Source: an uncultured Candidatus Saccharibacteria bacterium
GTDB taxonomy: Bacteria > Patescibacteriota > Dojkabacteria > SC72
Length of the DNA stretch: 33,586 nucleotides
Reading direction: 5' to 3'
Assembly: GCA_964647075.1 (NCBI GenBank)
Contig: CAZYGQ010000004.1
Coordinates: forward strand, 1 to 33,586
In this document: positions 10,852-31,456 of the stretch, in pieces
How positions within the stretch are numbered: position 1 is the first letter of the stretch
How the letters are laid out: every line of letters starts with the position of its first letter
Notes under the pieces: generated by a model
What the model was told of the DNA's origin: nothing
Database searches by the model: none
Seen by the model: the letters and a program-made list of their open reading frames with translations, nothing else
Made by a program: the position numbers and the translations under genes

Positions 10852-10900
10852 TTTAAACAAATGAAATACTCTATTATAAATATTTATAATATAATTAAAT

Positions 10901-11074: not shown

Positions 11075-11084
11075 AGATTCTGTA

Positions 11085-11210
11085 CCAGACGTGTATGTCC
11101 CGCCATATTTTCAAGGTTGCGACAAGACCCGTCCACTATGTTTTAAAACCCTTATGGAGATTGAGTTATTTAGACTCTAAAAAGTGAAAGTCTCAAAAGT
11201 AAGGCCTGGT
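11085..11210 (+). repeat. dispersed repeat copy E (core + M + truncated R)
   Basis: Core CCAGACGTGTATGTCCCGCCAT (11085-11106), then GCGACAAGACCCGTCCACTATG (M), then GATTGAGTTATTTAGACTCTAAAAAGTGAAAGTCTCAAAAGTAAGGCCTGGT (R). Similarity stops at GGCCTGGT, inside the 3' end of the HAD gene. Confidence 0.85.
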
Positions 11211-12789: not shown

Positions 12790-15047
12790 TGAATAGAAAC
12801 ACCCTTTATAAAAGAATAGCACTCATTCCAGTCTTTGTTTTACTGTTTCTAAGTTTAAAGACACTCGCCCTAGCAGGATGTACGGGGACACCTACCGCAT
12901 GTGGGAGTCTTCCATCTGGAAGTTGTTCCAGTTGTGGTTGTAGTACAACCGCAGGATACTGTAGTAACAATGGCGCATGCAGTAACAATACTACACAAAC
13001 AAACTGTGACTACTGTTCCTGTGCTGGATGTAGTTGGGGAGGTACTAGCTGCCCTTGGGTAGGAAGTTGGAATGGAGAAGAATGGATTTTAGAACATGAG
13101 GCATTCCCCTTTGCAGCTTTTGAAGGAGTAAGTACAACATCATATGACTCCTTACCCAACCTCAAGTGTATAAATGGGGAGGTAAAAATTAAGATATATG
13201 AGGGATTGCCAGAAAAATCTTTTGTAAATGATTTCAAATTGTTCAAGGCAGAAAAAGTTGAAGGATTAGTTAAGCCAGATCTGACAGGAACCCCTAGAAT
13301 ACTATCTCAAAGAGTCACTCCAGACAATTGTGCAAGCTCCGACAAGCAAGATTGTAAATTACAAATTTCTAGCTATGATGGAGAATTCTGGGAGCCTGAA
13401 TTCGACAATTCTAAAACTGAGGATTGGATTGAAGTTGAATTTAACAATATCAATTCTCAATCATCAAAGCTCTATATAGTTGCTCGTAAACAAGCCTTTT
13501 TAACAACTTACTACGAGTATATGGCACATATGATGGGGCAGAAACAGTTCTACCTATTCAGTGATATTTCGAAATGGGAGATATTTAATGACAGAATACA
13601 AAACTGGTGGGATGAAAATCTTAAGATGAAAGTAGAGGTTTGGGATGGGAGCAACTGGGTTAACCAAGGGTTAATCTCCGCTGGATATCATATGCCAGGA
13701 AGTGGAGCCGACGACTTCCTCATCTCCATTGCAAAAAAGGATCCAGGTTCAAATACCCTAAAGTTAAGAATGAGATTTCTTACAGGAGCGTTCGGCATAG
13801 ATTATATAACGCTAGATTCCTCATTAGATTCAACAATGAAGATTGAATCGATAACTCCAAAAGAGATTACCTTAAATGATAAAACTAGTACAAATGTCTT
13901 TCCACTATCAATGAGCTATGACGATTCCTTAATAATGAAATATGATTGTGAACCACAGGACACTTTCTTTTTCTCAATAGATGGCTACTATCTCCCAGAC
14001 AATTTCCTAAAAGAAAGAGAAAAAAGTCTTTTCTGTGCATGGGGTGAATTAATAGATTTCTTCTCAAAGGGGAAAGACAATGTCGTAAAGATTGCTTCTG
14101 AAAAAGGGCTTTACAAACATGCTAAATGTATGGATTCCTTTACCAAAGAGGAAATTGCAAAACAACAAGAAGAGTGCCCTCTTTATTACATTATTTGGGC
14201 AATATTTTTTATAACATTAATCGCAATTCTATATTTACTCTATAGGAAATTAGCGAAAAAACACTTCATACCCGTATTGATTATTACTCTATCTCTCCTT
14301 GGTGCAAGTTTAGGAGTAATCTCTACTTACGCTACAATGAGTTGTAGTGGAACACTTAACTGTAGCAACTGCTCCGAAGCAAACTGTAATTCCTGCCCAG
14401 TATGCACCTGGAATCCTCCAGCTTGTAGTGGGACTCCTTCTAGTTGCAGTTCGTACTCAACCCAAGCAGCTTGTAGTACTTGTGGCTGTACTTGGCAAGC
14501 TACTGGTCTTCTTGTAGATATTGTAGACGCAACGAACAATTCCGTGTCCTCCCCAAATATAAGTATGAGTAACAAATCACTTTCTTTCTCCTCCCAGACA
14601 TCTACAGGAACTTTGGGAACATCTTCAGAGAAAATATTTATACAATCTGATGGAACTACCAACTGGCAAGTTAGTATAGCAGCTACAGATGGTCCTACAG
14701 GATTGTGGGAGAATTCTGGTAGTAGCAAATTCTTTGATTTTAACGATTCAACTTCAAATGCCGAAGATGGCGCAGACAGTGATAGTTATGGTGGGCAGTT
14801 ATCAATATCTCCCTCATCTGCAACCCTAACGGCTGGTTCAGGATGTTCAAATGCTGGATTAAGTTTGGGCAGTAATTCTTCTTTTATCGAAGGGACCGTT
14901 AACTCAATCCTCCTACTTTCAGCCTCCTCACAATCCTCTGGGTGTAATTGGTCGTTGACAAATGTTGGTATATCTCAATCTATACCCAAAGAGCAAGCTG
15001 CAGACAGCTATGGTATAAATTTAACTCTTACAATCGTTGCTATTTAG
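12789..15047 (+). CDS. large surface protein: signal peptide, Cys-rich module, ~400-aa domain, two TM helices, second Cys-rich module, C-terminal WxL-like domain
   Basis: 752 aa. Signal LIPVFVLLFLSLKTLALA. Cys-rich module 1 CTGTPTACGSLPSGSCSSCGCS...CSWGGTSCPW. TM helices YYIIWAIFFITLIAILYLLY and FIPVLIITLSLLGASLGVISTYA. Cys-rich module 2 CSGTPSSCSSYSTQAACSTCGCTW. The last ~190 aa are paralogous to the 233-aa product of the next gene. Confidence 0.7.
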   Translation: MNRNTLYKRIALIPVFVLLFLSLKTLALAGCTGTPTACGSLPSGSCSSCGCSTTAGYCSNNGACSNNTTQTNCDYCSCAGCSWGGTSCPWVGSWNGEEWILEHEAFPFAAFEGVSTTSYDSLPNLKCINGEVKIKIYEGLPEKSFVNDFKLFKAEKVEGLVKPDLTGTPRILSQRVTPDNCASSDKQDCKLQISSYDGEFWEPEFDNSKTEDWIEVEFNNINSQSSKLYIVARKQAFLTTYYEYMAHMMGQKQFYLFSDISKWEIFNDRIQNWWDENLKMKVEVWDGSNWVNQGLISAGYHMPGSGADDFLISIAKKDPGSNTLKLRMRFLTGAFGIDYITLDSSLDSTMKIESITPKEITLNDKTSTNVFPLSMSYDDSLIMKYDCEPQDTFFFSIDGYYLPDNFLKEREKSLFCAWGELIDFFSKGKDNVVKIASEKGLYKHAKCMDSFTKEEIAKQQEECPLYYIIWAIFFITLIAILYLLYRKLAKKHFIPVLIITLSLLGASLGVISTYATMSCSGTLNCSNCSEANCNSCPVCTWNPPACSGTPSSCSSYSTQAACSTCGCTWQATGLLVDIVDATNNSVSSPNISMSNKSLSFSSQTSTGTLGTSSEKIFIQSDGTTNWQVSIAATDGPTGLWENSGSSKFFDFNDSTSNAEDGADSDSYGGQLSISPSSATLTAGSGCSNAGLSLGSNSSFIEGTVNSILLLSASSQSSGCNWSLTNVGISQSIPKEQAADSYGINLTLTIVAI

Positions 15048-15140
15048 TTTTATGAACTGTATAGTATATTTGTATTTAGTCTGTTGACAAGTGCTCTGTG
15101 AATATATTACGATTAAACTGTAATCTTATTTATAAAAGGA

Positions 15141-15842
15141 ATGAAAAGAAATAAAATAATAATTACTGTTAGCGCACTCTTAATTACCTTCATTACTGGA
15201 GCAACAACTATGTACTTTTTGTACAAGGAGAAATATGGGGTCGTTAGATCCGCAACAACAGCACTAACTCAAATTATTAACTCAGGAACATTAACTGCAG
15301 ACATTGTAGATGCAGCATATACTCCTGTAGCAAGCCCTTCTTTTGCAATGTCTTCTAAGAACTTTAGCTTTAGTTGTCAATCTTCAACTGGGACATTAGG
15401 GACCGCTTCACAACAACTTTATGTACAAAACCCTGATGCTGCAGATAGTGGGTGGACCTTAACAATTGCTGCCACTAGTGGTCCAACTGCTTACTGGGAC
15501 AGCACTGTCGACTACGATTATAATGACGCCACAAGTAGTGGTTGTACAGATGGAGCCGATGCAGACTCTTTAGCTGGACAAATGACAATAGATGCTTCTG
15601 CTGGAACATTAGCTGTAGGAAGTTGTAACTCATGCACAATAAATAATATAACAAAAGGTTCTTCCGCAGCATTTGCAGAGACCTCTGTTGATAGCATAAC
15701 CTTACTTAATGCAGCTGCAGGTTCTGATGATATTGGAGACTGGAAATTAACAGGAGTAGCAATAACACAAACAATTCCAGGAGAACAGCCAGCAGCTTCC
15801 GATTACTCTATTAATTTAACAATTACTGTTACAGCGGTATAA
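15141..15842 (+). CDS. secreted WxL-domain-like surface protein
   Basis: 233 aa with an N-terminal hydrophobic signal/anchor. ADIVDA...SPSFAMSSKNFSFSCQSSTGTLGT...LYVQNPDAADSGWTLTIAAT...GDWKLTGVAITQTIP...YSINLTITVTAV follows the WxL-domain layout (two W-x-L motifs and a Y..l.l.l C-terminus). The assignment is by pattern only. Confidence 0.55.
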   Translation: MKRNKIIITVSALLITFITGATTMYFLYKEKYGVVRSATTALTQIINSGTLTADIVDAAYTPVASPSFAMSSKNFSFSCQSSTGTLGTASQQLYVQNPDAADSGWTLTIAATSGPTAYWDSTVDYDYNDATSSGCTDGADADSLAGQMTIDASAGTLAVGSCNSCTINNITKGSSAAFAETSVDSITLLNAAAGSDDIGDWKLTGVAITQTIPGEQPAASDYSINLTITVTAV

Positions 15843-15858
15843 TTTGGTATTCGAAAAA

Positions 15859-17232
15859 ATGAAAAAAACAAAAACTGCCCTATTAACACTTTTACTATTA
15901 AGCCTTATTTATTCTACAGTATTCGCAATTGGACAGGATGGTATAGGCATATTACCTGCATATCCAAGGGAAGATAACGAGAGAACCCAATCCATATTTA
16001 TTTTCGAAAGTGCACCAGGAACTACTATTAATGATGGTGTTGTAGTTATGAACAACACTACAGATACTAAAACAATCTTAGTTTACGCTACCGATACAAC
16101 ACCTTCTTCGGACGGAGCTTTTGCTTGTAAACAGCTTTCGGAGGACATAGTTAACGAAGGAACTTGGTATAAATTAGAAGAAAGCGAAGTTACTCTCGAA
16201 CCAAATACAAATATAATTGTGCCTTTTACAGTTACAATCCCTGAAGATGTCTCAGTTGGTGAGCATAACGCTTGTATTGTAGTCCAAGAGAAAAAAGAAG
16301 CAGAAAACAATGCAGGAGTTAATTTAAGTTTCAGAGCAGCAATTAGATCTGTAGTAACAATACCTGGAGATATGCTTAAAAAGTTGGAAATAGAGGATTT
16401 CTTCTATACTAAAAACGAAGGTGGAAAAAATCAACTTACTGTTACATTGGCAAATAGTGGGAATGTGTCTTTGGATACCTCAATAAAAATTGATGTTAAT
16501 AATTTGATTTCCTCTAAGCTCTTTTATTCAAACACCTCTGAATTTACAATATTAAACAGTAACCAACAGACCTTTAATTTCGATATAGAAAATAACCCTT
16601 GGGGAGGTATATATAAGGCAGTTGTAACAATTACATTTGATGGTCAAAACGGGCCTGAAACATTAACAAAAGAATTAACCTTTGTAATTGTTCCATCAGT
16701 CTATGCTATGGCACTGTATGCTTCTGTATTAATAATATTGATTACTGCAATATTACTTTTATCTGGATCTAAAAGAAAGTATAAGATGGCTGTAAGAGAC
16801 TCTGAAGAATATATAGTTAAAGAGGGTGACACTTTAAACTCAATAGCAAAAGATCATAACGTTAAATGGAAATTACTTGCAAAAATAAATGGTAAAAAGG
16901 CTCCCTTTGAGGTTAAAGTTGATGAAAGGCTTAAAATACCTATGGTTAAAGGTAAAGAAAAAACCCAGGAAACTCCATTAATGGCCGAAAACAATCTCCC
17001 TAATGAGAGACCTGTAATACCTACTACATCCATTCCTACATTTAATAACCAACAAACAGAAGTAGGAGTTGAACCTGTACAAACTCCTCCAGCAGCTCAA
17101 CCAGCACCTTTTGTAGTAAGTGAGCCTATCTCAAATCCACAGCCAATTCCTACTCCAACTAATACACCACAGGAAAGTACATCAGAAGATATTATCAAAG
17201 ATATTCAAGGAGATATTACTAAAGCTCAGTAA
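15859..17232 (+). CDS. DUF916/DUF3324-like cell-surface protein with TM anchor and C-terminal LysM + Pro-rich tail
   Basis: The track draws a TTG start at 15844, but ATG at 15859 (MKKTKTALLTLLLLSLIYSTVFA signal peptide) is more plausible. ILPAYPREDNERTQSIFIFESAPGTTINDGVVVMNNTTDTKTILV and VTLEPNTNIIVPFTVTIPEDVSVGEHNACIVV resemble the DUF916 partner protein of WxL loci. TM helix VYAMALYASVLIILITAILLLSG. LysM YIVKEGDTLNSIAKDHNVKWKLLAKINGK...VDERLKIP. Confidence 0.6.
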   Translation: MKKTKTALLTLLLLSLIYSTVFAIGQDGIGILPAYPREDNERTQSIFIFESAPGTTINDGVVVMNNTTDTKTILVYATDTTPSSDGAFACKQLSEDIVNEGTWYKLEESEVTLEPNTNIIVPFTVTIPEDVSVGEHNACIVVQEKKEAENNAGVNLSFRAAIRSVVTIPGDMLKKLEIEDFFYTKNEGGKNQLTVTLANSGNVSLDTSIKIDVNNLISSKLFYSNTSEFTILNSNQQTFNFDIENNPWGGIYKAVVTITFDGQNGPETLTKELTFVIVPSVYAMALYASVLIILITAILLLSGSKRKYKMAVRDSEEYIVKEGDTLNSIAKDHNVKWKLLAKINGKKAPFEVKVDERLKIPMVKGKEKTQETPLMAENNLPNERPVIPTTSIPTFNNQQTEVGVEPVQTPPAAQPAPFVVSEPISNPQPIPTPTNTPQESTSEDIIKDIQGDITKAQ

Positions 17233-18576: not shown

Positions 18577-18610
18577 CTGTAGAGGATATACAGTATTTTC
18601 GGAAGTCATT

Positions 18611-18700
18611 CCATATCCTCCGCCAATTTCAACATGTTCCAACAAGACCCGTTCGCTGATATGGTAACTCCTTAAACCTCATCTTAAAGTCCTAAAGATT
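18611..18700 (+). repeat. dispersed repeat copy F (degenerate core + M + start of the following spacer)
   Basis: CCATATCCTCCGCCAATTTCAACATGTTCCAACAAGACCCGTTCGCTGAT aligns with H GTGTATGTCCCGCCATTTCCAACATGTTCCAACAAGACCCGTCCACTAT. CAACATGTTCCAACAAGACCCGT is identical in both. Confidence 0.75.
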
Positions 18701-18768
18701 AATAAACTGTTGAGATATGATTAAATAGGATGTATAAATTAATATATATTAATTTATAATATTAAAAT

Positions 18769-19263
18769 ATGGCAAAACCTACAAAAAATGCAGCAATTAT
18801 ATGTACTATTGTATCTATTATTGCATTGATAGGAATCATTATTGGATTATCAAAAGGTATTCCCCTACTAATTATATCTCTTTTACTTCCAGCGGTAGTA
18901 TATGAAGTGTATAGAACTGAAGGAGAGTCAACAAGATCTTCATCCATTATTCTTTTAGTTGTGTTAATAGTTGAAATAATACTTGTACTATTTAATATTA
19001 ATTTTAATCTTGCTGAATTCCTAGGTACCACTGAAGAATACATCGGGGGATATCTAGTACCTCTTGGAGAAATTAAAGTGGTCGGCCCAACTCTCATGTC
19101 CATACTTTCAGTTATCCTTTTTGTGAGAACTCGAGGAATATATACTAGATGGTTAGCAGTAACAATCTTTATTACCTCTTTAGTAATAATATACTCAGTT
19201 AACCCTAAAATATTCAGCGATTTGATTAAGATGGCATTACAAGAAGGACTAAGACAGCTATGA
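18769..19263 (+). CDS. small integral membrane protein (about 5 TM helices), hypothetical
   Basis: 164 aa, dominated by hydrophobic stretches (AAIICTIVSIIALIGIIIGL, LLIISLLLPAVVY, IILLVVLIVEIILVLF, LMSILSVILFV, LAVTIFITSLVIIY). Confidence 0.55.
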   Translation: MAKPTKNAAIICTIVSIIALIGIIIGLSKGIPLLIISLLLPAVVYEVYRTEGESTRSSSIILLVVLIVEIILVLFNINFNLAEFLGTTEEYIGGYLVPLGEIKVVGPTLMSILSVILFVRTRGIYTRWLAVTIFITSLVIIYSVNPKIFSDLIKMALQEGLRQL

Positions 19264-19265
19264 AA

Positions 19266-20366
19266 TTAGAGTAAAGAACTAATCTTGTTTATCATATCTT
19301 TTACTTCCTCTCTACTTAGATACCCCTCTTCCAAAAGAGTACTATTTACAGGATAAACGACATGTTCTAAAAAGGTTATACCTTCGGAGTGAGTAGTGTG
19401 TGTTTCAGTTCTAAATTTTGTTAATGAGTGACAAAATTGTTTCCCACTGGGCAAATAACAAAGAGTTGACACAAGACTACCCGAAATAATATGTTTTCCA
19501 ATCTGTATGGCTTGAAGAATTTTTCCCTCAAGTGGTAATTCTTCTTTTTCAAATGCGTTTGGTGGATATTTTATCCTTGTATCAGTACCTCCTGATGCTT
19601 GAATTTTTGTTACAGTACCATCAAAATTCTTTATCTCAATAACTCCATCCCGCTTCTTCCCTTTCTTAACTAATCTCGGTGTTGGAGAAATAATAAAATA
19701 TACAGCTGAATACTTATTATATTTTCCTATCTCATATTTAAAATTTGATTCTTTTACTCCTTTTACAATCTGCTCTGATGCTTTGTTAAATTCTTTTAAC
19801 ATTTTATCCAATTCCTTTTCACTTCCAAAATGTTTCTTTATTTCTTCTCTTACTAAAGGATTTTGTAAAGTTTCTCCAAAGGTCATATTGTTTGTCATAC
19901 CTGGCATTTGAGCATTCATTAATCCCTTTGTCGTTTGAGTGACCATATTCTCCAAAGTCTGAGATGCTATTTTTTCATTTTCATAGTCTGCAATAGAAAC
20001 ATCGATATGGAAATCACATTCCTCAGGATTAATGTTGTTTGTTTTTTCTCTCATATTTTGAACATCTTTTACAGTTATACCGGTGATAAAGCCGGCTTGT
20101 ATTGCTTTAATCATAGCTTCATAGTAATCTGTCATAGATCCTCTTAACGTTTGAACCCCCACTACTATTGTAGTCTCTACAACTTTTCTTTTTTTATCTT
20201 CCTTGTTAACTTGAGATGCTATACCCTTTTCTTTATTCATAAATACCTCGGGATTAATATGCCCTATTCTTAAAACAAACTGATTACTGGATGAAGCAGA
20301 ATAGTCCAAGAGTTTCCACCTCTTTGGATCTGCAAAGTCTTCGAGTTTTAATTTTTCATCTCTCAT
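19266..20366 (-). CDS. hypothetical protein (366 aa, cytoplasmic)
   Basis: Long ORF 11 nt downstream of the 382-aa gene on the same strand. No recognised motifs. Confidence 0.55.
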   Translation of the reverse strand: MRDEKLKLEDFADPKRWKLLDYSASSSNQFVLRIGHINPEVFMNKEKGIASQVNKEDKKRKVVETTIVVGVQTLRGSMTDYYEAMIKAIQAGFITGITVKDVQNMREKTNNINPEECDFHIDVSIADYENEKIASQTLENMVTQTTKGLMNAQMPGMTNNMTFGETLQNPLVREEIKKHFGSEKELDKMLKEFNKASEQIVKGVKESNFKYEIGKYNKYSAVYFIISPTPRLVKKGKKRDGVIEIKNFDGTVTKIQASGGTDTRIKYPPNAFEKEELPLEGKILQAIQIGKHIISGSLVSTLCYLPSGKQFCHSLTKFRTETHTTHSEGITFLEHVVYPVNSTLLEEGYLSREEVKDMINKISSLL

Positions 20367-20377
20367 TAAAATATACC

Positions 20378-21526
20378 CTAGGTAACAGATTTGTCTTTTT
20401 CTTCCTTCTTAGTTTCAACAGTATTAATTTCAACATCAGTACCCTCTTCTACCGTTACCTTTACTTTGTTTTGACTCTTATCTTCTGTTTCAATTTTTTT
20501 ACTTTCAGATATTGACTTCTCATTAGATTGTTTTTTGTTCTTCTTACCCATTCGGATAACAAGCAAGACAATGAAAACTACTACTAGAATAGCTAATGCT
20601 AAAATCGCCAATTTAATAATAATGCCTTTAGTATTATCAGTAACAATCGTACTCTCTTCCTCGTTGTTTTCAGTTTCCTGGTCTATTGCAATCTCTCCTC
20701 CCACTTTCTCTATGCTCTGATTTGTAATCAATAGTGTATATTGATCAATGCTATCCCACTTCTCTCCATATGAGGATTGTTTTACTACAACATATATGTA
20801 TCCATCGGATTGGATTTCAAATGTTTTTTGAATAATTTGACCTACTTCAAGATTTAATCCATCCTCGTTAAAAAGCTCTGACCTATTACTGTCATAAACT
20901 GCGCAACCCACTTCAAAATCTCCTGTAGGTTCTACTTTTATCTCAATATTGTCACCCTTTTTTACCGCTAACCTGTAATAGTCTGAATTATCATTTCCCC
21001 CTATGCTCCCAGATACAAAACTAGATAAAGAACCCGTATATTCACCATATTTAATACCTAGTGCACTATTAAAATCCCCCCCAGCATCAGTTTTGCTCAT
21101 AGCATCCGTTCTATCTACTAGTGTAACATCATACAACTGAGAATTAGTTCTGTAAGAATTCTTTACAACTAAATAGTATTTTGTTGGTGTCAAATCAGCT
21201 CCGAGCCACTTTAATGTATCTTCTACATCTATACTTGTCACTATTTCGGTCTTTTCACTGTTATATAGAGATACGAATCCGAAGAATCCTTCTCCTGTAA
21301 TTTTATATCTTACATCTAATTCATATCCTGATTTAGAGTTAAAAAAGTAATAACAGGTACTATTTTCATTAATTACTCCTCCAGTATTTTCTCCTTCTTG
21401 AAGTTCTACGGCATTGGAAAAATCATTCCCACAAGTGGTAACTTCATTTGCATACACCGCATTTAAAGGGGAAAACAGTAGGGAAAGAAACAATAATGTG
21501 ATAAATAAATATAGTTTAGTGTTCAT
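20378..21526 (-). CDS. secreted, membrane-anchored protein with two PPC-like (pre-peptidase C-terminal type) beta-domains
   Basis: 382 aa. Signal peptide LYLFITLLFLSLLFSPLNAVYA. Two repeats of the pattern CGNDFSNAVELQEGE...YYFF and DAGGDFNSALGIKYGEYTG...NDNSDYYRLAVKKGDNIEIKV...AVYDSN. TM helix IIIKLAILALAILVVVFIVLLVI, then a Lys/Glu-rich tail. Confidence 0.55.
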   Translation of the reverse strand: MNTKLYLFITLLFLSLLFSPLNAVYANEVTTCGNDFSNAVELQEGENTGGVINENSTCYYFFNSKSGYELDVRYKITGEGFFGFVSLYNSEKTEIVTSIDVEDTLKWLGADLTPTKYYLVVKNSYRTNSQLYDVTLVDRTDAMSKTDAGGDFNSALGIKYGEYTGSLSSFVSGSIGGNDNSDYYRLAVKKGDNIEIKVEPTGDFEVGCAVYDSNRSELFNEDGLNLEVGQIIQKTFEIQSDGYIYVVVKQSSYGEKWDSIDQYTLLITNQSIEKVGGEIAIDQETENNEEESTIVTDNTKGIIIKLAILALAILVVVFIVLLVIRMGKKNKKQSNEKSISESKKIETEDKSQNKVKVTVEEGTDVEINTVETKKEEKDKSVT

Positions 21527-21603
21527 TATAATTTGAATTAAATTAACTATACACTTAAAAGTTTAGCAAATATTCTCTGAATTGCAAATCAAAGAGTACT
21601 CTT

Positions 21604-21815
21604 TTTACTTTGTCTCATTGTCATCTCTCATAGGGTCCAGACGTGTATGTCCCGCCATATTTGAGCTGTTCCAACAAGACCTGTGTACTATGTTTAAAGA
21701 GCCTTTTAAGACTTGTTTTGTTTATCCTTAAAAACAGGAGTGTTCAAAAGTAAGGCCTGGTGGATGAAAAAGTGAGAAAAAGAGATGTTTTTTAAGCTCC
21801 TCGGTTCGAAGGAGA
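21604..21815 (+). repeat. dispersed repeat copy G (full length: L-like + core + M + R)
   Basis: Core CCAGACGTGTATGTCCCGCCAT at 21637-21658. M is GTTCCAACAAGACCTGTGTACTATG. R is TTCAAAAGTAAGGCCTGGTGGATGAAAAAG...CTCGGTTCGAAGGAG. Confidence 0.9.
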
Positions 21816-21836
21816 AAGGCCTATTTAGCACAATAA

Positions 21837-22727
21837 TTACTTACTCAACTTAATATGATCCACTACCTTCCCCCCTACCAATTCCAATTCATATTTTTCT
21901 ATCAATTCCAAAACAACCTCATTTAACCTATTCTTGTAATCATTACTCTGAGAATCAACAAAAAGTCTGTGCTCTTCCTTACTCAACTTATCTCCAACCA
22001 GTTTCATCAATCTCTTCATCTTCTTACCTTTCAAATTAATATGCTCTACCCATACTACGTTAGTACCCGCCTCCTTTATCCTTCTAAACAGTTTTTCCAA
22101 ACCCTTCTCATTAGCAACAAAATGAGGAAGAAGAGGACCTACAAAAGCATATGTATTTATACCCTCTTTATTTAATTCACTTAATGCTTTTATTCTCAAA
22201 GAACTAGGAGGAGCATAACTCTCAAACATCTTACTAACTACGTCATCTGTAGATGTAATTGTCATACCTATTTCCAAATTGGGGATTTGTTTAAATATAT
22301 CTATATCTCTAGTTACTAATGGGGATTTAGTAAGTAAGGAAATTTTAATATCCTTTTTAATTTCACTCTCTGCTATTATTTCTAAACATTTTTTTGTTAA
22401 CTGGTACTTAGCTTCTACACCCTGGTATGGGTCTGTAACAGAACCAAAGAATATTGCTGGCTTATCTCCTTTTTTAAACTCATTCTTTTTAACTATCTTC
22501 TTAGAAAGATTACTTAATTCTTTTTCAAATATTTGTGGGGTATTAGTCTTAATATCTACATACTCACCCCATTTATCATTAGTATGTCCTGTAAATCTTC
22601 TAGTAAAGTCTGCGTAGCAGTATACACAACCGAAAGCACATCCTGAGTATGGATTAACTACATAGTCTGCACCTGGTAGTTTACTTGGTGTTAGTACAGA
22701 CTTAGCTTCTTTCTGAGTAATTTTCAT
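21837..22727 (-). CDS. radical SAM protein, SplB-like (COG1533 DNA-repair-photolyase family)
   Basis: 296 aa. VVNPYSGCAFGCVYCYADF carries the CxxxCxxC cluster in the family-typical NPYxGCxxxCxYCYA context. Confidence 0.85.
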   Translation of the reverse strand: MKITQKEAKSVLTPSKLPGADYVVNPYSGCAFGCVYCYADFTRRFTGHTNDKWGEYVDIKTNTPQIFEKELSNLSKKIVKKNEFKKGDKPAIFFGSVTDPYQGVEAKYQLTKKCLEIIAESEIKKDIKISLLTKSPLVTRDIDIFKQIPNLEIGMTITSTDDVVSKMFESYAPPSSLRIKALSELNKEGINTYAFVGPLLPHFVANEKGLEKLFRRIKEAGTNVVWVEHINLKGKKMKRLMKLVGDKLSKEEHRLFVDSQSNDYKNRLNEVVLELIEKYELELVGGKVVDHIKLSK

Positions 22728-22746
22728 TCTTAGCCATTATAACAAG

Positions 22747-22985
22747 AATAAGACATTTTCTCCCCCTTTTTATACTGTCTTATTTGTCTCATTTTAGGTT
22801 CCAGACGTGTATGTCCCGCCATTTCCAACATGTTCCAACAAGACCCGTCCACTATCTCTAGGAATCCCTTGGTTGCTTCATAAAATCGTCCCTAAATTTA
22901 AGTATTTCGATTTCACATCCTGGTGGATGAAAATACCCATTTTAAGACCAGTTTTTACTACCCCACGGTTCGAAGGTAAAAGCTT
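22747..22985 (+). repeat. dispersed repeat copy H (full length: hairpin + L + core + M + R)
   Basis: AATAAGACA (22747-22755) pairs with TGTCTTATT (22776-22784). Core CCAGACGTGTATGTCCCGCCAT at 22801-22822 is identical to G and E. M is TTCCAACAAGACCCGTCCACTAT. R is CCTGGTGGATGAAAATACCC...CACGGTTCGAAGGT. Confidence 0.9.
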
Positions 22986-24892: not shown

Positions 24893-26191
24893 TTACTCTA
24901 TTATCAACCTTCTATTATTTAATAGAAACTTAGTTTTAATACCTTCTAATATTCTTAGTCTCTCCTGTGGATTACCAAACTGTAGTATATGTAATAGGTA
25001 GTTCTTAATCATTTCATCTGTAGTATGTATTTCTTCTTTACCATTATGTGGTGTTAGTTCTTTTCCTTTGTAATTACTATCTTCTATTATCAATCTCATA
25101 TTGTTTACTCTCTTTATCTCATCATTGAATTCTTTAAGTAGATATTTCTTGTCTAATTTCATTTGAGGAAGTAACGATATTAATTGATTAATCATCTCTT
25201 CTTCTGTTATATATGGTTCTCTACACTTCTCATCTTTAGATCTACAACAGTGATAGTAGATATGTGTATTTACTTTAGTAGATTTAAGTACTCTGTACTT
25301 TATTTCTGCTGTTACTCCTGATCCACAACTAGCACATGTACATATCTTTTTAAATGGGAATACTTGTTTATTCCATTGTTTTGGTGTTGTTTCTAATTGT
25401 ATTTGTACCTTATCAAATAGCTGTTTGGATATTAATGCTTGATATGTTCCTTTATACCAATGTCCTCCGAAATGGAATTCTCCATAGTAGAATGGATTCT
25501 TAAGAGTAGCGAATACTCTTCCTAATGACATTTCACATCCTCTTGGTGTTTTAAAGTTTATACTTCTTAACCATCTTCTTATCATTCTTCCAGAGTGTCC
25601 TTCATACCCTACTCTTTCAAACATTTCTTTTACTATTGGTGCTCTTTCTTTATCAAACTGTACAGATGATATTCTATTTGCTTTTAGTATATTTACATAC
25701 CCTATTGGTGCTGGTCCTGGTCTAATTCCTATCATGCATTTATTTCTGTGTCCCCTTTTTACATTTATTCCTCTGTTATCATTTTCTAATTTAGCTTGAG
25801 AACATAGTATCATTAGTAAGAATTTTTCATTTGGGTTATTAGAGAATGTTTGTGAATGGCAGTTTATTAGTTCTAGTTTTCCTTGATCCATTAGGTCTAC
25901 TATTCTTCCTAAGTCTCCTGCATTTCTAGATAGTCTGTCTGGTGCCCATGTAATAATGGCGTTGTATTTTCCTTTGAATATATTGTCTAATAGGTTATTG
26001 AATTGTGGTCTTTGTCCTGTTTCTTTTGCAGAGTGTGATTCTGTAATTGTTTCTACTATGTTTATCTTTTCTCTTTTAGCTTTTTCTTTCATTTCCATGA
26101 GTTGTCCATCTATACTCATGGCTTGTCTTTCATCTGATTCTGAGGATTTTCTTGCGTAGAGGACATATTTGAGTTGTCGTGTATCTTTCAT
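24893..26191 (-). CDS. large serine recombinase (resolvase/invertase catalytic domain + recombinase domain + Cys-rich zinc ribbon)
   Basis: 432 aa. YVLYARKSSESDERQAMSIDGQ (catalytic Ser region), ITWAPDRLSRNAGD, and a C-terminal Cys cluster CTCASCGSG...YYHCCRSKDEKC. Confidence 0.85.
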   Translation of the reverse strand: MKDTRQLKYVLYARKSSESDERQAMSIDGQLMEMKEKAKREKINIVETITESHSAKETGQRPQFNNLLDNIFKGKYNAIITWAPDRLSRNAGDLGRIVDLMDQGKLELINCHSQTFSNNPNEKFLLMILCSQAKLENDNRGINVKRGHRNKCMIGIRPGPAPIGYVNILKANRISSVQFDKERAPIVKEMFERVGYEGHSGRMIRRWLRSINFKTPRGCEMSLGRVFATLKNPFYYGEFHFGGHWYKGTYQALISKQLFDKVQIQLETTPKQWNKQVFPFKKICTCASCGSGVTAEIKYRVLKSTKVNTHIYYHCCRSKDEKCREPYITEEEMINQLISLLPQMKLDKKYLLKEFNDEIKRVNNMRLIIEDSNYKGKELTPHNGKEEIHTTDEMIKNYLLHILQFGNPQERLRILEGIKTKFLLNNRRLIIE

Positions 26192-26234
26192 TAGAAGGAA
26201 GGTACCAGTAAGGTGAGAGGAAGTCTAGGGAATT

Positions 26235-29200
26235 CTAAAGATTTCTTGAGATATCAAAGAATCTCTCAAAGAAACTTGAGAGTTTACTTAATACACTTTC
26301 TCTTTTTTTGCTTCTTTCTCTTGTTTGAGAAAAACGTGATACAGGTGGTAAAACTTTTGTAATTGCTGTCCCAGTAGTAGCTACCACACCATCTCTAAAA
26401 GCATTCTGAATGAAAGTATATGTAGCGTCTCTATCTAAACTCTCGCTTTCAATTATTTGTTCTAACTCTTCAATCTTCTTTTTGTTGACAAAATTTTGCC
26501 AATCTTCATCAACAACTGACTGGGCACCCAAGGATGTTATGAATTGATTTATCAAATCTTTCTTGTTTCTTAACGAGACACTCGAATCAATTGCCTTATT
26601 TATATCTACTAAAATCTCTCGATTTTGAATATGATCTTCATGATATTTTTTGATTAATCCAAGTATGTAATCAATATTAATATCAACTTGCTTAATAAGT
26701 TCCATTTCAAAGACCAAATCATCATTAACATTTTCCTTCTCCCCTTCCTCTCCTTTCCTGAATTCATTGTATATATCTATATAGACACTATGATAATCTT
26801 GTACGTCACGCTCCGTCAGGATTTCATTTCCTTCAAACTCATCAAATGTTACAAGAATATTTCTAACTCGTAAAATTGCACTATATAACTTGATAAAGTC
26901 CTTCTGACTTTGTTCACCAAGTACTCTTTCTCCAACTGGATATTTTTCCAACAACTCATTAACCATGCTTTCATATCCTCTTACTTCTTTTTCGCCATCT
27001 TTATATCCATAATAGTAATCTTTATATGCTTTTAATAAAACAATACCACTAGCCTCTTTATCTCCAAATAAGGCAATAGATTCATTTGTTGCCTTCTCAA
27101 GATTACGGAAACAAACAATATTTCCAAATGTTTTTACACTATTTAATATACGATTAGTTCGAGAAAATGCTTGCAGTAACCCATGTAATCGTAAATTCTT
27201 ATCAACCCATAAGGTATTAAGTGTTGTAGCATCAAAACCAGTTAAGAACATATTTACTACAATCAAGATGTCAATATCCCTGTTTTTTACACGCTCACTT
27301 ACATCTTTATAATAGTTCTGGAATTTATCTGAAGAGGTATCATAAGATGTTCCAAACACCTGATTGTAATCTGCAATAGCACTTTCTAAGAAATCCCTTG
27401 AGCTAGTATCAAGACCTGATGTATCCTCAGAATTCTCATCTATCATTCCATCTGCATCTTCGTCATTTACTCCGAAACTATATATTGTTGCAATCTTTAA
27501 TCTTTTATCACTTGGAACTTCTGATAACTGTTTTTTAAATTCTGCATAATACTTTTTGGCTACATCAATAGATGAAACTGCAAAGATAGAATTAAAACCA
27601 GCAAGTCTCCTTTCTTTTATTTTGTAAAAAGTATTTCGTTTTGTTTTTTGATCAAAATGCTCTCGAATATATTCCACAATGTTAGAAAGTCTTTCAGGAG
27701 ATGAGAGAATCGCTTCTCTATCAATATCGCTTACTTTTTCATCTTCAATGTCCTCTGCCTCACGAACTGTTGAAATGTAATCTACTTTGAATGGTAAAAC
27801 ATTATTATCAGCAATAGCATCAACAATTGTATACGTATGCAATTTTTCTCCAAATGCTTGCTCTGTTGTTTTCAAATCTGGACGACCACCCGAAGATGCA
27901 TTGATTGCAAAGATTGGAGTACCTGTAAAACCAAAAATATGATAATTCTTAAATGCCTTCGTTATTGCAGCATGCATTTCTCCAAACTGCGAACGATGAC
28001 ATTCATCGAATATAATCACTACATGTCCATCAAGAATTGTATTTCCGTTGTTTCTACTTACAAATCTCTCTAATTTTTGTATCGTAGTTATAATTATCCT
28101 AGAATTCGGATCATTTAGCTGTTTTGTCAGTATTGCTGTACTTGTATTACTGTTCGCTGCACCTTTTTCAAATTTGTCATATTCTCGCATTGTTTGATAG
28201 TCCAAATCCTTACGATCTACAACAAATATTACTTTTTCAATGTAAGGTAGCTTACTAGCTAATTGAGCTGTTTTGAAACTAGTTAAAGTTTTTCCTGATC
28301 CTGTTGTATGCCATATATATCCCCCAGCGTCTACTGTACCCAGTTTTTTATAGTTTGTACTTACCTCAATTCTATTAAGTATTCTTTCAGTAGCAACGAT
28401 CTGATAAGGACGCATCACAAGAAGTAATTTTTCTGTAGTAAAGACACAATACTTGCTTAATATATTTAAAATAGTATGTTTTGCAAAGAATGTTTTTGCG
28501 AAATCCATTAAATCTGTTATCGGTCGATTTGTAGCATCTGCCCACCAACTTGTGAATTCAAAACTATTACTAGTTCTTTTACCCATTTTAGTTGAGCCTT
28601 CTCCTGTTTCTTTAATATGCTGAGATCTTGTTGTATTACTGTAATACTTTGTATGGGTACCATTTGAAATTACAAATAACTGTACATATTCAAAAAGTCC
28701 CGATGATGCCCAAAAACTTTCTCTACTATATCTATTTATTTGATTGAAGGCTTCTTTAATTGCAATTCCTCTTCGTTTTAATTCTACGTGTACTAAGGGT
28801 AATCCATTAACAAGAATTGTTACATCATATCTATTTGCTCTTTGTCCTTCTTCTGTTGAGTATTGGTTGATTACTTGTAGAATATTGTCATGGATATTGT
28901 CTTTTCTAATTAAATATATATTCCTTACTATTCCATCATCTCGAATTAAATTCTTTATATAGTCTTCTTGTATTGTGGTTGTTTTCTCTTGAATGCTTTG
29001 ATTTGGATTTGCTAATTCACTTTTAAAAAATTTTTCCCATTCTGTATCAGAGAATGTATATTCATTTAATTTTTGTAATTGTATACGTAGGTTATTGATA
29101 AGATCTTCTTCATTGTTTATCGATAGATATTCATATGCTTGTAATTTTAGTTGTTCAATGAAGGCTTTTTCTAATTCTGCTTCGGTTTGATACTTTGCAT

Positions 29201-29294
29201 CTCGGAGTGTGTTTGTATTAGAAACATATTTACTTACTACAGTACTTTCTGTATTTTGAGCAACCATATTGTAACTATATGTATTATTTTCCAT
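26235..29294 (-). CDS. hsdR: Type I restriction enzyme, R subunit (HsdR)
   Basis: 1019 aa. Nuclease motif RYDVTILVNGLPLVHVELKRRG. Helicase motif I HTTGSGKT. Motif II IIFDECHRSQ. Later FTGTP and helicase C motifs. Confidence 0.92.
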   Translation of the reverse strand: MENNTYSYNMVAQNTESTVVSKYVSNTNTLRDAKYQTEAELEKAFIEQLKLQAYEYLSINNEEDLINNLRIQLQKLNEYTFSDTEWEKFFKSELANPNQSIQEKTTTIQEDYIKNLIRDDGIVRNIYLIRKDNIHDNILQVINQYSTEEGQRANRYDVTILVNGLPLVHVELKRRGIAIKEAFNQINRYSRESFWASSGLFEYVQLFVISNGTHTKYYSNTTRSQHIKETGEGSTKMGKRTSNSFEFTSWWADATNRPITDLMDFAKTFFAKHTILNILSKYCVFTTEKLLLVMRPYQIVATERILNRIEVSTNYKKLGTVDAGGYIWHTTGSGKTLTSFKTAQLASKLPYIEKVIFVVDRKDLDYQTMREYDKFEKGAANSNTSTAILTKQLNDPNSRIIITTIQKLERFVSRNNGNTILDGHVVIIFDECHRSQFGEMHAAITKAFKNYHIFGFTGTPIFAINASSGGRPDLKTTEQAFGEKLHTYTIVDAIADNNVLPFKVDYISTVREAEDIEDEKVSDIDREAILSSPERLSNIVEYIREHFDQKTKRNTFYKIKERRLAGFNSIFAVSSIDVAKKYYAEFKKQLSEVPSDKRLKIATIYSFGVNDEDADGMIDENSEDTSGLDTSSRDFLESAIADYNQVFGTSYDTSSDKFQNYYKDVSERVKNRDIDILIVVNMFLTGFDATTLNTLWVDKNLRLHGLLQAFSRTNRILNSVKTFGNIVCFRNLEKATNESIALFGDKEASGIVLLKAYKDYYYGYKDGEKEVRGYESMVNELLEKYPVGERVLGEQSQKDFIKLYSAILRVRNILVTFDEFEGNEILTERDVQDYHSVYIDIYNEFRKGEEGEKENVNDDLVFEMELIKQVDINIDYILGLIKKYHEDHIQNREILVDINKAIDSSVSLRNKKDLINQFITSLGAQSVVDEDWQNFVNKKKIEELEQIIESESLDRDATYTFIQNAFRDGVVATTGTAITKVLPPVSRFSQTRERSKKRESVLSKLSSFFERFFDISRNL

Positions 29295-29877
29295 ATTCTT
29301 TGAAGGTTAATAGTTTGTTTCTATAATATTCGTATTGCTTCTTCCTTGCTTCCAATTCTGCTTCCAATTCTGCTTCCAATTCTGCTTCCAATTCTGTAAA
29401 AGAATCTAATATTTTTACTATTTCTTGTTGAATTGGAAGGGCAGGGAGAGGAATTGGCAATTTCCATAGGTAAGACTTATCTAGTTTTGGCATTGAGCCG
29501 CCATAAAGATGATGCTTAAAATTTTGTGATTCATGCTTTACGAAATAGTAAACATATTTAATAAGTGCTTTTTCATCTTTTTGAGTTGCAACAAAACATA
29601 CATCTGTTGCCCAAAACTTATTGGGTAACCAATTTACAAAACCAGCACTTCCTGCACGTGAGATTGTTATTGCATTTTCAAAATTATATTTATTATAATA
29701 ACCAGTAGGTGATGTGCCCCCACCCATAACAGGATATTCAAAATCGCCATCCATCATTGATTTAATAATTCTGTCGCCTGCTTGAAGATTGCAAATTTTA
29801 CTAAATTCTTTAATTTCCACTATCCCTGAGCACAATTCATTAATCAACTTTTCAATATTGTTCATTTTTTTACTCAT
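29284..29877 (-). CDS. hsdS: Type I restriction enzyme specificity subunit (HsdS), half-size with a single target-recognition domain
   Basis: 197 aa, about half the length of typical two-TRD HsdS proteins. Conserved LPIPLPALPIQQEIVKILDSFTELEAELE... helix. Overlaps hsdM by 8 nt and hsdR by 11 nt. Confidence 0.8.
   Translation of the reverse strand: MSKKMNNIEKLINELCSGIVEIKEFSKICNLQAGDRIIKSMMDGDFEYPVMGGGTSPTGYYNKYNFENAITISRAGSAGFVNWLPNKFWATDVCFVATQKDEKALIKYVYYFVKHESQNFKHHLYGGSMPKLDKSYLWKLPIPLPALPIQQEIVKILDSFTELEAELEAELEAELEARKKQYEYYRNKLLTFKEYGK
29348..29395 (-). repeat. perfect in-frame tandem repeat, 12 bp x 4 (GCTTCCAATTCT on the + strand), encoding (ELEA)x4 in HsdS
   Basis: Read directly from the sequence: gcttccaattct gcttccaattct gcttccaattct gcttccaattct. 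The minus-strand codons are GAA TTG GAA GCA. Confidence 0.95.
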
Positions 29878-31456
29878 TTGCTTCTATATCATTTACTATT
29901 TCATCAATTGCTAATCTCAATTCATTCTGTCTCTTAACAATATCTTTTATTTTTGAATTAAGTTCAGAAATATTTATTATCTCCCTCGTATCTTCCGCTA
30001 TAACATAGCTTGAAACACCAATATTGTAATCATTCTCCCCTATCTCTTTGTTATCTACCAATTTCGAAAAATACTCCTCATCTAAACGTTTTGAAAAACT
30101 ATTAAGTATCTTACTAATATTCTCTTCACTTAATTTGTTCTTGTTTCCTCCTCTTACAAATTCCTTAGAAGCATCTATAAAAAGAGTTTTGTTATCCTTT
30201 TTGCTCTTTTTAAGAACAATTACACATGTTGCAATCGTAGTTCCAAAAAACAAATCTGGTGGTAATTGAATAACCGTATCAATATAGTTGTTATCTATTA
30301 GATATTTTCTTATTTTTTGTTCTGCCCCTCCGCGATATAAAACCCCTGGGAATTCAACAATAGCTGCAGTACCACTTGTAGAAAGCCATGAAAGCATATG
30401 CATTGTAAATGCTAAATCCGCCTTACTCTTTGGTGCCAATACTCCTGCAGGGGAAAAACGAGGATCATTTATTAGTAACGGGTTACTGTCTCCTTCCCAT
30501 CTTATAGAATATGGGGGATTAGACACTATTGCATCAAAAGGCTCATCATCCCAATGCTTTGGATCAGTTAATGTATCTCCAAGTGCAATATCAAAATTAT
30601 TGTAATTAATATCATGCAAAAACATATTTATACGACAGAGATTGTAAGTAGTAAGATTAATCTCCTGTCCAAAGAAACCTTGACGAACATTTTCTTTTCC
30701 TAAAACTTTAGAAAATTTAAGAAGCAAAGAACCAGAACCACATGCTGGGTCATATACTTTATTTACTTCTTTCTTCCCTACTGTCGTAATCTTTGCAAGA
30801 AGCTCACTCACTTCTTGTGGAGTGTAGAACTCTCCTCCAGACTTTCCTGCATTGGAAGCATACATTGTCATAAGAAATTCATATGCATCTCCAAAAGCAT
30901 CTATTGTATTATCAGAATAATTGCCCAAACGAAGTCCTCCAATAGCCTCTAGGAGATTTACTAATTTCTGATTTCTTTTTTCAACTGTATTACCAAGTTT
31001 TGCAGAGTTAACATCAAGATCTGCAAAGAGTCCTTTTAAGTCATCTTCACTACTAAATCCTTTTGCTGAATTCTCAATATTCTTAAAAACTTGTGAAAGT
31101 GTTTCATTTAAGTTCTTATCCTGTCTAGCATTTTTTAAAACATTTAAGAAAAGTTCACTAGGTAATATGTAGAATCCCTTTTCCTTTACAGTGTCCTCAT
31201 GGCCATACTCGGCTTTTTCATCGGATAGATCTGCGTAATTGAAGTCCTTATTTCCTGACCTACGTTCGTCTGTATTAATATAGTTAGTTAGATTCTCACT
31301 AATGAAACGATAGAAGAGTATACCAAGGACATATTGTTTAAAATCCCACCCATCAACGCTACCTCGTAAATCATTTGCAATCTGCCAGATAGCTCTATGT
31401 AGTTCTGTGCGTTCTTGCTCTTTAGTTCGATTACCATTTTGAGTAGTATCTGCCAT
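29870..31456 (-). CDS. hsdM: Type I restriction enzyme, M subunit (HsdM), N6-adenine DNA methyltransferase
   Basis: 528 aa. HsdM N-terminal domain LHRAIWQIANDLRGSVDGWDFKQYVLGILFYRFISE. SAM motif VYDPACGSGSLL. Catalytic IVSNPPYS. Confidence 0.92.
   Translation of the reverse strand: MADTTQNGNRTKEQERTELHRAIWQIANDLRGSVDGWDFKQYVLGILFYRFISENLTNYINTDERRSGNKDFNYADLSDEKAEYGHEDTVKEKGFYILPSELFLNVLKNARQDKNLNETLSQVFKNIENSAKGFSSEDDLKGLFADLDVNSAKLGNTVEKRNQKLVNLLEAIGGLRLGNYSDNTIDAFGDAYEFLMTMYASNAGKSGGEFYTPQEVSELLAKITTVGKKEVNKVYDPACGSGSLLLKFSKVLGKENVRQGFFGQEINLTTYNLCRINMFLHDINYNNFDIALGDTLTDPKHWDDEPFDAIVSNPPYSIRWEGDSNPLLINDPRFSPAGVLAPKSKADLAFTMHMLSWLSTSGTAAIVEFPGVLYRGGAEQKIRKYLIDNNYIDTVIQLPPDLFFGTTIATCVIVLKKSKKDNKTLFIDASKEFVRGGNKNKLSEENISKILNSFSKRLDEEYFSKLVDNKEIGENDYNIGVSSYVIAEDTREIINISELNSKIKDIVKRQNELRLAIDEIVNDIEANE

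Follow-up and report, generated by a model that had tools for sequence, protein, structure and literature searches.

How does a single gene come to lie between two identical copies of a short repeat, with no recombinase of its own? The question is raised by positions 21,604-22,985 of contig CAZYGQ010000004.1 (assembly GCA_964647075.1), from Dojkabacteria SC72. The whole stretch analysed, positions 1-33,586 of the forward strand (33,586 nt), is called the window, and coordinates given without a locus name refer to it. The gene encodes a radical S-adenosylmethionine (radical-SAM) protein. A preliminary description of this DNA had proposed that gene and repeats form one minimal integrated element with both attachment (att) arms, a single cargo gene and no recombinase. 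Bacteria of the candidate phyla radiation (CPR, or Patescibacteria) have tiny genomes and no genetic tools, and their acquisition of accessory genes is poorly understood. Here, region 21637-22822 is described as one non-autonomous cassette (R arm, radical-SAM gene with a promoter-like -10 element, L arm and core) in an array of eight junctions anchored on a tRNA-Asp gene. With moderate confidence, we favour the view that this recombinase-less cassette is mobilised by a neighbouring serine recombinase.

A single-gene unit between two identical cores

The two cores, M_G (21637-21658) and M_H (22801-22822), are on the plus strand and read CCAGACGTGTATGTCCCGCCAT. That they are identical, direct and 1164 bp apart, as first described, was borne out by a check of the sequence. 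Each mimics a tRNA tail and is presumed to be the crossover site or a half-site. Matches to the 21-nt core pattern with at most three mismatches occur five times in the window, against 0.00 expected from shuffles. A third exact copy of the 22-mer is found at 11085-11106.

Between the cores, the R_G arm comes first (21659-21822, plus strand, about 165 nt), located 3' of the radical-SAM stop codon. It contains a degenerate second tRNA-tail-like block, GTTCCAACAAGACCTGT, as well as the motifs GGCCTGGTGGATGAAAA and CGGTTCGAAGG. The radical-SAM gene (21837-22727, minus strand, 296 aa) is the sole real open reading frame (ORF) between the cores. The L_H arm (22749-22800, plus strand) stands at the 5' side of the gene and is 92% identical to the L arm at 8472-8523. 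It includes an inverted repeat, AATAAGACA (22747-22755) and TGTCTTATT (22776-22784), around a GGGGG/TATAC stretch. The layout given in the preliminary description (core plus R, one minus-strand gene, hairpin plus L) holds for R, the single gene and L with its inverted repeat. It has to be completed on the left, where the repeat copy also has an L arm. This variant arm, L'_G (21584-21636, plus strand), ends in ...TTTTTACTTTGTCTCATTGTCATCTCTCATAGGGT and forms the right end of the preceding cassette. It was recognised by alignment with CATTCTCATTTTACATAGGGT-type L copies elsewhere and by a whole-junction nhmmer profile, with which the L-core-R copies of the window were placed (match 21602-21814, beginning at profile position 21). 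To the right of M_H, the profile also delineates the R_H arm (22823-22985, plus strand).

Outside the core, the two flanking copies are strongly diverged. R_G and R_H are 61% identical (other R pairs, 60-73%), and L'_G and L_H 56%. The preliminary description had proposed to take flanking copies as diverged as unrelated ones, together with a lack of empty-site or circular variants in related data, for a sign of ancient static duplication. Such divergence is indeed what we find, but it does not imply static duplication, because sites exchanged by the att-site model share the core only. The idea of a minimal element with two arms, one cargo gene and no recombinase is retained as to its anatomy, its arms being those of a larger recombinase-carrying element (see below). 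The identity of its cores is no sign of a recent event. Since the exact 22-mer is present in 49 of 93 copies elsewhere, the 22/22 identity corresponds to lineage-wide conservation and reflects purifying selection rather than recent duplication.

The junction is conserved across the lineage and mimics a tRNA 3' end

A scan with the core pattern CCAGACNNGTATGTCCCRCCA, using one genome per species, returned 79 loci. Nearly all belong to Candidatus Dojkabacteria or to metagenome-assembled genomes (MAGs) labelled Saccharibacteria or Patescibacteria, and many have 2-4 copies per contig, spaced by 0.25-4 kb. About 93 copies of the pattern were found in about 65 Dojkabacteria/CPR MAG loci. Their polarity is constant, with a left arm containing ...TTTTTATACTGTCTCTTTTGTCTCATT... 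and a right arm ...GTTCCAACAAGACCCGTCCACTA...GGCCTGGTGGATGAAAA...CGGTTCGAAGG. The whole junction measures about 240 bp and its conserved blocks are direct repeats (GGTTCCAGAC...GT and GTTCCAACAAGACCCGT).

The eight junction copies placed by nhmmer in the window are all on the plus strand. They extend from a tRNA-Asp gene to position 22985, and none is found further right. Four of them (B, C, D and F) are truncated. The anchor is tRNA-Asp(GTC) (5636-5712, plus strand; 73.3 bits with Rfam, also found by ARAGORN), which has the 3' end ...GGTTCGAGTCCCGTCCATTCCGCCA. The first junction copy consists of this 3' end directly followed by an R arm (5713-5875, plus strand; nhmmer match 5687-5874). In a gap-free alignment with the final 25 nt of the tRNA, the core sequence GGTTCCAGACGTGTATGTCCCGCCA is identical at 17 of 25 positions, over GGTTCC...CCGCCA. 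A second, degenerate tail-like block, GTTCCAACAAGACCCGTCCA, is present at the start of R. At some internal junctions the true tail replaces the mimic, as at L041 6810-6847 and L168 14400-14425. These 25-nt tail copies are not within a tRNA, and the one in L168 is adjoined by R. L168 is a predicted viral contig, with an 84% homologue of the recombinase described below and a site made of tRNA tail and R. Where the 3' end of a tRNA-Asp or tRNA-Ser gene was read, it was always ...CCGCCA.

Core copies with CC at the variable dinucleotide are closer to the tRNA-Asp tail (19/25 identical). Two copies of the CC variant TTCCAGACCCGTATGTCCCGCCA were seen outside tRNAs called by ARAGORN or Rfam, at L013 1646-1666 (a Saccharimonadales contig) and L069 5361-5381 (a Parcubacteria contig). 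The first can be folded with an upstream GGGACA into a minihelix-like hairpin.

Other natures of the repeat were considered. An origin from a structured RNA or a tmRNA or tRNA gene was rejected. At the Rfam gathering score, the window and 14 loci contain ordinary tRNA genes only and no family corresponds to L-core-R; ARAGORN finds no tmRNA, and the core is not a tmRNA end because its acceptor-like strand is without G3:U70. A conserved fold was rejected as well. RNAalifold, applied to 27 copies of core plus R, gave -2.6 and -4.9 kcal/mol for the two strands and no supported helices, and the single long-range GTCCAC/GTGGAT pairing is disrupted in several copies. A promoter and terminator scan of the repeats found none. 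For the R arm, no Rfam match, consensus fold, terminator or coding potential was detected. A dif/XerCD-like or attC-like site does not fit, the core having no dyad symmetry by inspection and a repeat search finding no inverted repeats there. Nor is there support for a crossover at the variable dinucleotide of CCAGAC-NN-GTATG, since a mini-cassette of the window has TC in its left core and GT in its right core. The exact core was not matched in the viral collection.

The same arms end an element encoding a large serine recombinase

No recombinase is encoded in the array itself (5.7-23 kb of the window). Beyond it, a minus-strand gene (24893-26191), with its 3' end toward the array and the tRNA, encodes a 432-aa protein. 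Pfam recognises Resolvase (7.5e-22), Recombinase (2.3e-14) and, just under the cut-off, Zn_ribbon_recom (7e-5). In an alignment with the SPbeta integrase, the serine of its YARKS motif falls in the resolvase nucleophile region (YLRRS motif of that integrase). By these predicted domains (catalytic, Recombinase, zinc ribbon), the protein is a large serine recombinase (LSR) and a candidate trans-acting integrase/excisionase. It has more than 8000 homologues, the best 120 of which are 63-96% identical, about 435 aa long and spread across Patescibacteria. Its best named NCBIfam family is CcrB, with CcrA (47 bits, cut-off 700) and CcrC (41 bits, cut-off 900) scoring lower. Because the CcrB score is 103 bits for a cut-off of 900, it is not a member of the Ccr family.

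The surroundings of this gene recur in a constant order: a ParB_N/N6_N4-methylase gene, a protein of about 132 aa, a Terminase_6C-like protein, a variable defence system, the LSR, 0.5-10 kb of variable genes, an opposite-strand R and a convergent tRNA. Among the 13 loci with an LSR orthologue of at least 60% identity and at least 3.5 kb of downstream sequence, R or L-core-R is found downstream of the LSR gene in 12, always on the opposite strand. The LSR lies 0.5-10 kb from a convergent tRNA in L080, L084, L086, L087, L089, L093, L101, L105, L108, L111, L128 and L132, and the junction series ends at this tRNA wherever the sequence extends that far. In the Dojkabacteria loci (L080, L086, L087, L089, L093, L101, L105 and L111), the tRNA is tRNA-Asp, adjoined as in the window by a Trx-Sua5/TsaE-TsaD-enolase cluster. 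R adjoins the tRNA in L080, L086, L089, L093, L105 and L111. In other classes, a convergent tRNA-Ser, tRNA-Asn or tRNA-Pro is found downstream of the LSR, and R was detected beside tRNA-Ser only (E 7e-10 and 2e-6).

Two loci delimit the element. L089 represents a minimal state, with tRNA-Asp, R, a homologue of the 276-aa gene of the window and the LSR gene. This cassette-free order makes R_H the probable resident end of the LSR element. In L116, which has the ParB-methylase, terminase large subunit (TerL)-like and LSR module, an L-core is found at the far end, three genes past the ParB-methylase, before unrelated flanking DNA. The LSR-carrying element is thus bounded by R on one side and by L-core on the other, and its attachment site is L-core-R. 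The cassettes share these ends with the larger element and contain no recombinase. Hallmarks of tRNA-associated islands are also present: the island adjoins an intact tRNA 3' end, a partial or mimic copy of the tRNA tail is found at the other boundary, and the integrase gene is at the tRNA-proximal edge, being of the serine type rather than the usual tyrosine type. No plausible catalyst other than the 432-aa LSR was found, and the linkage of its family to the junction sites is tight.

L-core-like copies were also seen in another CPR class, at L084 15758-19629. They lie downstream of tRNA-Ser(GCT), a second tRNA, and opposite the side of the LSR and tRNA-Ser(ACT). A single genome may thus form arrays at two or more tRNAs.

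Cassettes occur in different contexts

The 150 ORF families around the arrays of the 79 loci have diverse accessory functions. A search for a recurrent recombinase beside the arrays was unsuccessful: Pfam analysis of the 150 family representatives gave no recombinase family with at least two members. Cassette content turns over rapidly. Contigs whose LSR is 92-96% identical to that of the window (gene, 90-94.5% at the nucleotide level) share none of its cassettes, and their housekeeping flank can be as low as 70-74% identical. Conversely, the same cassettes are found in different arrays. An AbiEii/AbiEi pair recurs in L041, L002 and L028 with 84-92% protein identity. The window mini-cassette (10852-11084), 233 bp between two cores, lacks L and R arms of its own. 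Its 60-aa ORF (10892-11074, plus strand) has 100% protein identity with ORFs in L024, L038 and L074.

The radical-SAM gene occurs in five neighbourhoods: the window, L041, L161/L162, L157 and L165-L167. In L161/L162 (84% at the nucleotide level) it forms a single-gene unit with different neighbours, between a degenerate L-core and a full L-core-R. Collinear homology with the window (82% over 1214 nt) spans core-L-gene-R-core-L and ends there. In L041 (78% at the nucleotide level) the gene is part of a different array, preceded by a true tRNA-tail copy and a truncated R. In L157, one junction is followed by the radical-SAM gene, two further genes and a second junction. L041 and L080 are parts of the same 724-kb contig, JBMNHC010000001.1, whose LSR/tRNA-Asp locus (L080) is free of cassettes. 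When two junction copies share their left flank only, they diverge at +21/+22 of the core; when they share their right flank only, at -1/-2. Similarity is thus lost at the two core edges. A second, minor class of breakpoints is located at +36 to +48.

Haplotypes with and without the block co-exist in a metagenome

Variants of the locus were searched in 12 DNA metagenome runs, available as short-read contigs that break at repeats. Contigs matching exactly the radical-SAM, 382-aa and 276-aa proteins are all 1-4 kb long and end at repeats. In X3, a 2280-nt contig joins 18629 to 22826 through 23 shared nt, with no mismatches, and lacks 18630-22825, that is, the radical-SAM cassette and its neighbour. 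The left partner of this crossover is junction F (18609-18657, plus strand), made of a degenerate core and the proximal part of R. The interval 18767-22797 is present in other X3 contigs at a similar depth, so that X3 contains haplotypes that have the 18630-22825 block alongside haplotypes that lack it.

Read depth changes at junctions in two other runs, X1 and X5, from digester and bioreactor communities in which this strain reaches 100-360x. In X5, it is 360x left of junction F, 182x over 18623-21658, 222x over the radical-SAM unit and, beyond its right end, 197x. In X1, the two cassettes are at 88-97x and the right flank is at 10x. Loose ends of the tRNA-Asp tail join directly to 18619 and 22816, the latter in X1, X16 and X18. 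R copies are mosaic, as in one contig where a CCGCCATTTTCAACA start is fused to the remainder of R_G. Two joints that go back, 22795>21636 and 22857>21746, were considered as possible circles and rejected; their sides span 32-33 nt only and mismatching letters assign them to other L-core-R junctions.

A contig of X8 departs from the radical-SAM gene at 22528 into ...AATAAGACATTCTCTT, the start of an L arm. Its sequence suggests a 5'-truncated radical-SAM copy joined to a junction in another strain.

A model for cassette mobilisation and its alternatives

We propose that the platform is a conserved element integrated at the 3' end of a ...CCGCCA tRNA, in Dojkabacteria and in other CPR classes. 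It would comprise, in order, the ParB-methylase, a small protein, the terminase-large-subunit-like protein, the variable defence system and the LSR. Its R end would be tRNA-proximal and its L-core at the far end, giving an L-core-R attachment site with a core of 21-25 nt. Small units with R and L-core ends could then accumulate between the tRNA and the LSR gene, so that each seam would be a full L-core-R junction. Units would be gained, lost and reshuffled via recombination in the core, with some exchange about 25-47 nt into R, at the second tail-like block. Encoded 2 kb further right, the LSR most probably works in trans, by analogy with Ccr on recombinase-less units of the staphylococcal cassette chromosome (SCC).

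A number of observations weigh against this model. The preliminary description had suggested searching for the precise deletion of 21659-22822 and for a circle joining 22800 to 21659. In the 12 runs, the corresponding 21658>22823 join is absent from the contigs, and an unambiguous circle junction is likewise missing; as short-read contigs break at repeats, this negative carries little weight. The 18629>22826 crossover, the only rearrangement of this kind seen, lies within R, 5-27 nt right of the core, at the second tail-like block. As it falls in a 23-nt identity within R, homologous recombination fits equally well. More generally, any recombination between diverged repeats should leave breakpoints where identical blocks end, and such breakpoints do not separate the site-specific from the homologous kind. 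R_G is 73% identical to the R of the L161 homologue and 76-81% identical to unrelated R copies; the arm therefore does not clearly travel with the gene. The L041 array, which has four junction copies and contains both the AbiE pair and the radical-SAM gene, is away from the LSR locus of its contig, with no tRNA within 8 kb. In L165-L167, an 80% homologue of the radical-SAM gene is found with no repeats at all. Finally, canonical LSR att sites are about 50 bp long with weak dyad symmetry and share only a dinucleotide. The junction is atypical for an LSR in its length of about 240 bp, in its direct rather than inverted blocks and in having partner sites that are alike rather than of the attP/attB kind.

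Could homologous recombination alone account for the arrays? L-core-R would then be a conserved intergenic module, with a promoter or operator in L, a 3' region in R and the tRNA-tail-like segment as an insulator. DNA taken up from relatives would undergo RecA-type crossovers in the longest identical blocks, and the LSR would integrate its own large element only. The inverted repeat of L, located at the 5' side of many cassette genes, would suit such a module, and DNA-uptake machinery is commonly encoded by CPR bacteria. The mosaic R copies, the absence of co-divergence of R with the gene, the breakpoints at the ends of identical blocks and the sole deletion variant, crossing in R, all agree with it. 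However, a 21-nt core invariant across species requires a function of its own, and neither RNAalifold, Rfam nor the promoter and terminator scan reveals a regulatory or RNA structure. The arms are the ends of the LSR element, kept beside different tRNAs in other classes. Moreover, the 233-bp mini-cassette, which has neither L nor R, is inserted exactly core to core and its protein is fully conserved in four genomes. We therefore hold homologous recombination to be an unlikely, if serious, explanation of the whole.

It is improbable, in our opinion, that a different recombinase from another part of the genome, such as a tyrosine recombinase or XerC/D, drives an integron-like or lambda-like system with L and R as arm-type accessory sites. 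The layout of about 50 nt, a 21-25-nt core and about 165 nt does recall a lambda-type attP with arms, and recombination between like sites suits tyrosine recombinases. According to the Islander literature (PMC4383910), tyrosine integrases typically have identity blocks at tRNA 3' ends, and the blocks seen here fit this picture. Nevertheless, no Phage_integrase-type protein is found among the 30 ORFs of the window, no recombinase family appears twice in the 150 ORF families at other arrays and the core shows, by inspection, no dyad symmetry of the dif or attC kind. Even less probable is a static relic, in which ancient duplications were fixed in place and the unit is immobile now. The divergence of the flanking copies, the truncation of junctions B, C, D and F and the failure to find a circle or a precise empty site in the 12 runs are in line with a relic. 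It is made unlikely by the wholly different cassette content of strains with 92-96% identical LSR, by the presence of the AbiE pair, the mini-cassette and the radical-SAM gene in different arrays, by the two X3 haplotypes and by the depth steps at junctions in X1 and X5.

Mobilisation of the cassettes by the LSR may be part of a broader system. Tentatively, and with more doubt than for the radical-SAM unit itself, we propose a phylum-wide gene-capture platform of CPR bacteria, a serine-recombinase counterpart of the integron that is established on G73-CCA tRNAs and uses L-core-R for module and cassettes alike. The module, possibly phage-derived, may be composed of the ParB-methylase, a small terminase subunit (TerS)-like protein, the TerL-like protein, a defence hotspot and the LSR. 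It may serve hundreds of promoter-bearing, recombinase-less mini-cassettes, with the radical-SAM unit as a minimal, intact and mobilisable example. Cargo may include radical-SAM enzymes, toxin-antitoxin pairs, methyltransferases, RuBisCO and heliorhodopsin.

Comparison with known systems

The array is functionally closest to SCC elements with their Ccr recombinases, and it is a member of none of the systems discussed here. As in SCC, the recombinase is a large serine recombinase, its best named NCBIfam match being CcrB. Insertion occurs at the 3' end of a conserved housekeeping gene that is left intact (rlmH in staphylococci), each unit brings a short target-like copy that gives rise to direct-repeat junctions, and tandem composites include recombinase-less units (pseudo-SCC) that need mobilisation in trans. 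In contrast to SCC, the target is a tRNA 3' end (Asp, or Ser, Asn and Pro in other classes) rather than rlmH. The junctions are about 240 bp long with L and R arms instead of repeats of about 18 bp, and the cassettes, 0.25-3 kb in size, are often single genes. The LSR belongs to a conserved module with TerL-like and ParB-methylase genes. SCC units are excised as circles by the recombinase and re-integrated; for the present array, the short-read contigs show no unambiguous circle junction.

Integrons also have a fixed platform beside a recombinase gene, one junction element per cassette and fast turnover between close strains. Their cassettes are likewise small, recombinase-less and mostly made of a single gene, have diverse accessory functions and are arrayed in one direction. 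Here, however, no IntI or other tyrosine recombinase is present among the 30 window ORFs. attC sites are imperfect inverted repeats of 57-141 bp (R''-L''...L'-R'), whereas the present junction combines long arms with a direct tRNA-tail-like core. A tRNA gene anchors the array, and the recombinase gene is found at the distal end. At least the radical-SAM cassette appears to carry its own -10, whereas integrons use the common Pc promoter. A third comparison is with cis-mobilisable elements (CIMEs) that accrete with integrative and conjugative elements (ICEs) or integrative and mobilisable elements (IMEs) at the 3' ends of tRNA genes or other genes, such as the ICESt1/ICESt3 family. There too, non-autonomous elements carry the att arms of an autonomous element at the same site and pile up in tandem, dependent on the resident integrase. 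Those systems use tyrosine integrases and conjugation or mobilisation genes, whereas here the recombinase is of the serine type, the autonomous partner looks phage-like or satellite-like (terminase-like gene) and the units are much smaller and present in larger numbers.

The literature searched contained no description of the system. A 2025 survey of Patescibacteria genomic islands mentions no tRNA, integrase, recombinase or cassette (PMC12455944). If the model is correct, it would explain strain-level variation of gene content in CPR bacteria and add a serine-recombinase analogue to the gene-capture family of integrons, SCC and CIMEs. It would also provide a ready recombinase/att pair, with a site of about 240 bp, for CPR genetics and the recombinase toolbox. 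The radical-SAM unit would be a compact substrate of about 1.4 kb for testing this pair.

The radical-SAM gene and its putative promoter

The 296-aa protein matches Pfam Radical_SAM (3.2e-12) and has a CxxxCxxC motif at C30/C34/C37. It belongs to the COG1533 group, the "SplB-like / DNA repair photolyase" superfamily, with similarity at the superfamily level only. It is not a spore photoproduct lyase proper (photo_TT_lyase TIGR04070, 28.7 bits for a cut-off of 400; Pfam SPL, 18.6 for 27). NCBIfam rSAM_mob_pairB reaches 144 bits for a cut-off of 410, and all named subfamilies are well under their cut-offs.

An extended -10-like element, TGTTATAAT (22736-22744, minus strand), was read from the sequence 8 nt upstream of the ATG. 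It is conserved as TGGTATAAT in the homologous cassettes of L157 and L161. A sigma-70 two-hexamer scan did not call TGTTATAAT. This arrangement suggests that the cassette has its own promoter, with an mRNA that is leaderless or nearly so. Weak evidence of transcription comes from a metatranscriptome contig of 168 nt that matches 22539-22706.

Other genes of the locus

To the left of the radical-SAM unit, the preceding cassette (18658-21526) contains genes for proteins of 164, 366 and 382 aa. Further left, between junctions E and F, four genes form a surface-protein locus (12127-17232). The last one encodes WxLIP_PGBD and LysM domains, and several of the proteins have no Pfam match. Homologues in L058 are 38-53% identical.

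Genes for proteins of 195 and 276 aa follow downstream of the LSR gene. To the right of the array, the LSR gene region (24914-26229) is 94.5% identical at the nucleotide level to that of L087, and the tRNA-side Sua5/TsaE and thioredoxin genes are 70-74% identical. The high identity stops at the gene ends, which suggests that the LSR gene alone was recently exchanged horizontally between the two species.

The slot between the TerL-like and LSR genes has variable content. It holds a restriction-modification system of type I in the window (26235-31456), a PLD-SNF2 helicase and an MmeI-like methylase in L080 (3369-9946) and L086 (2626-8999), and SMODS-SLATT with Hypoth_Ymh in L116 (7427-9608); it is empty in L082. 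The slot looks like a defence hotspot within the conserved module. In the window, the half-size hsdS gene contains four perfect in-frame copies of a 12-nt unit (29347-29394, TGCTTCCAATTC register), possibly a specificity or phase-variation repeat.

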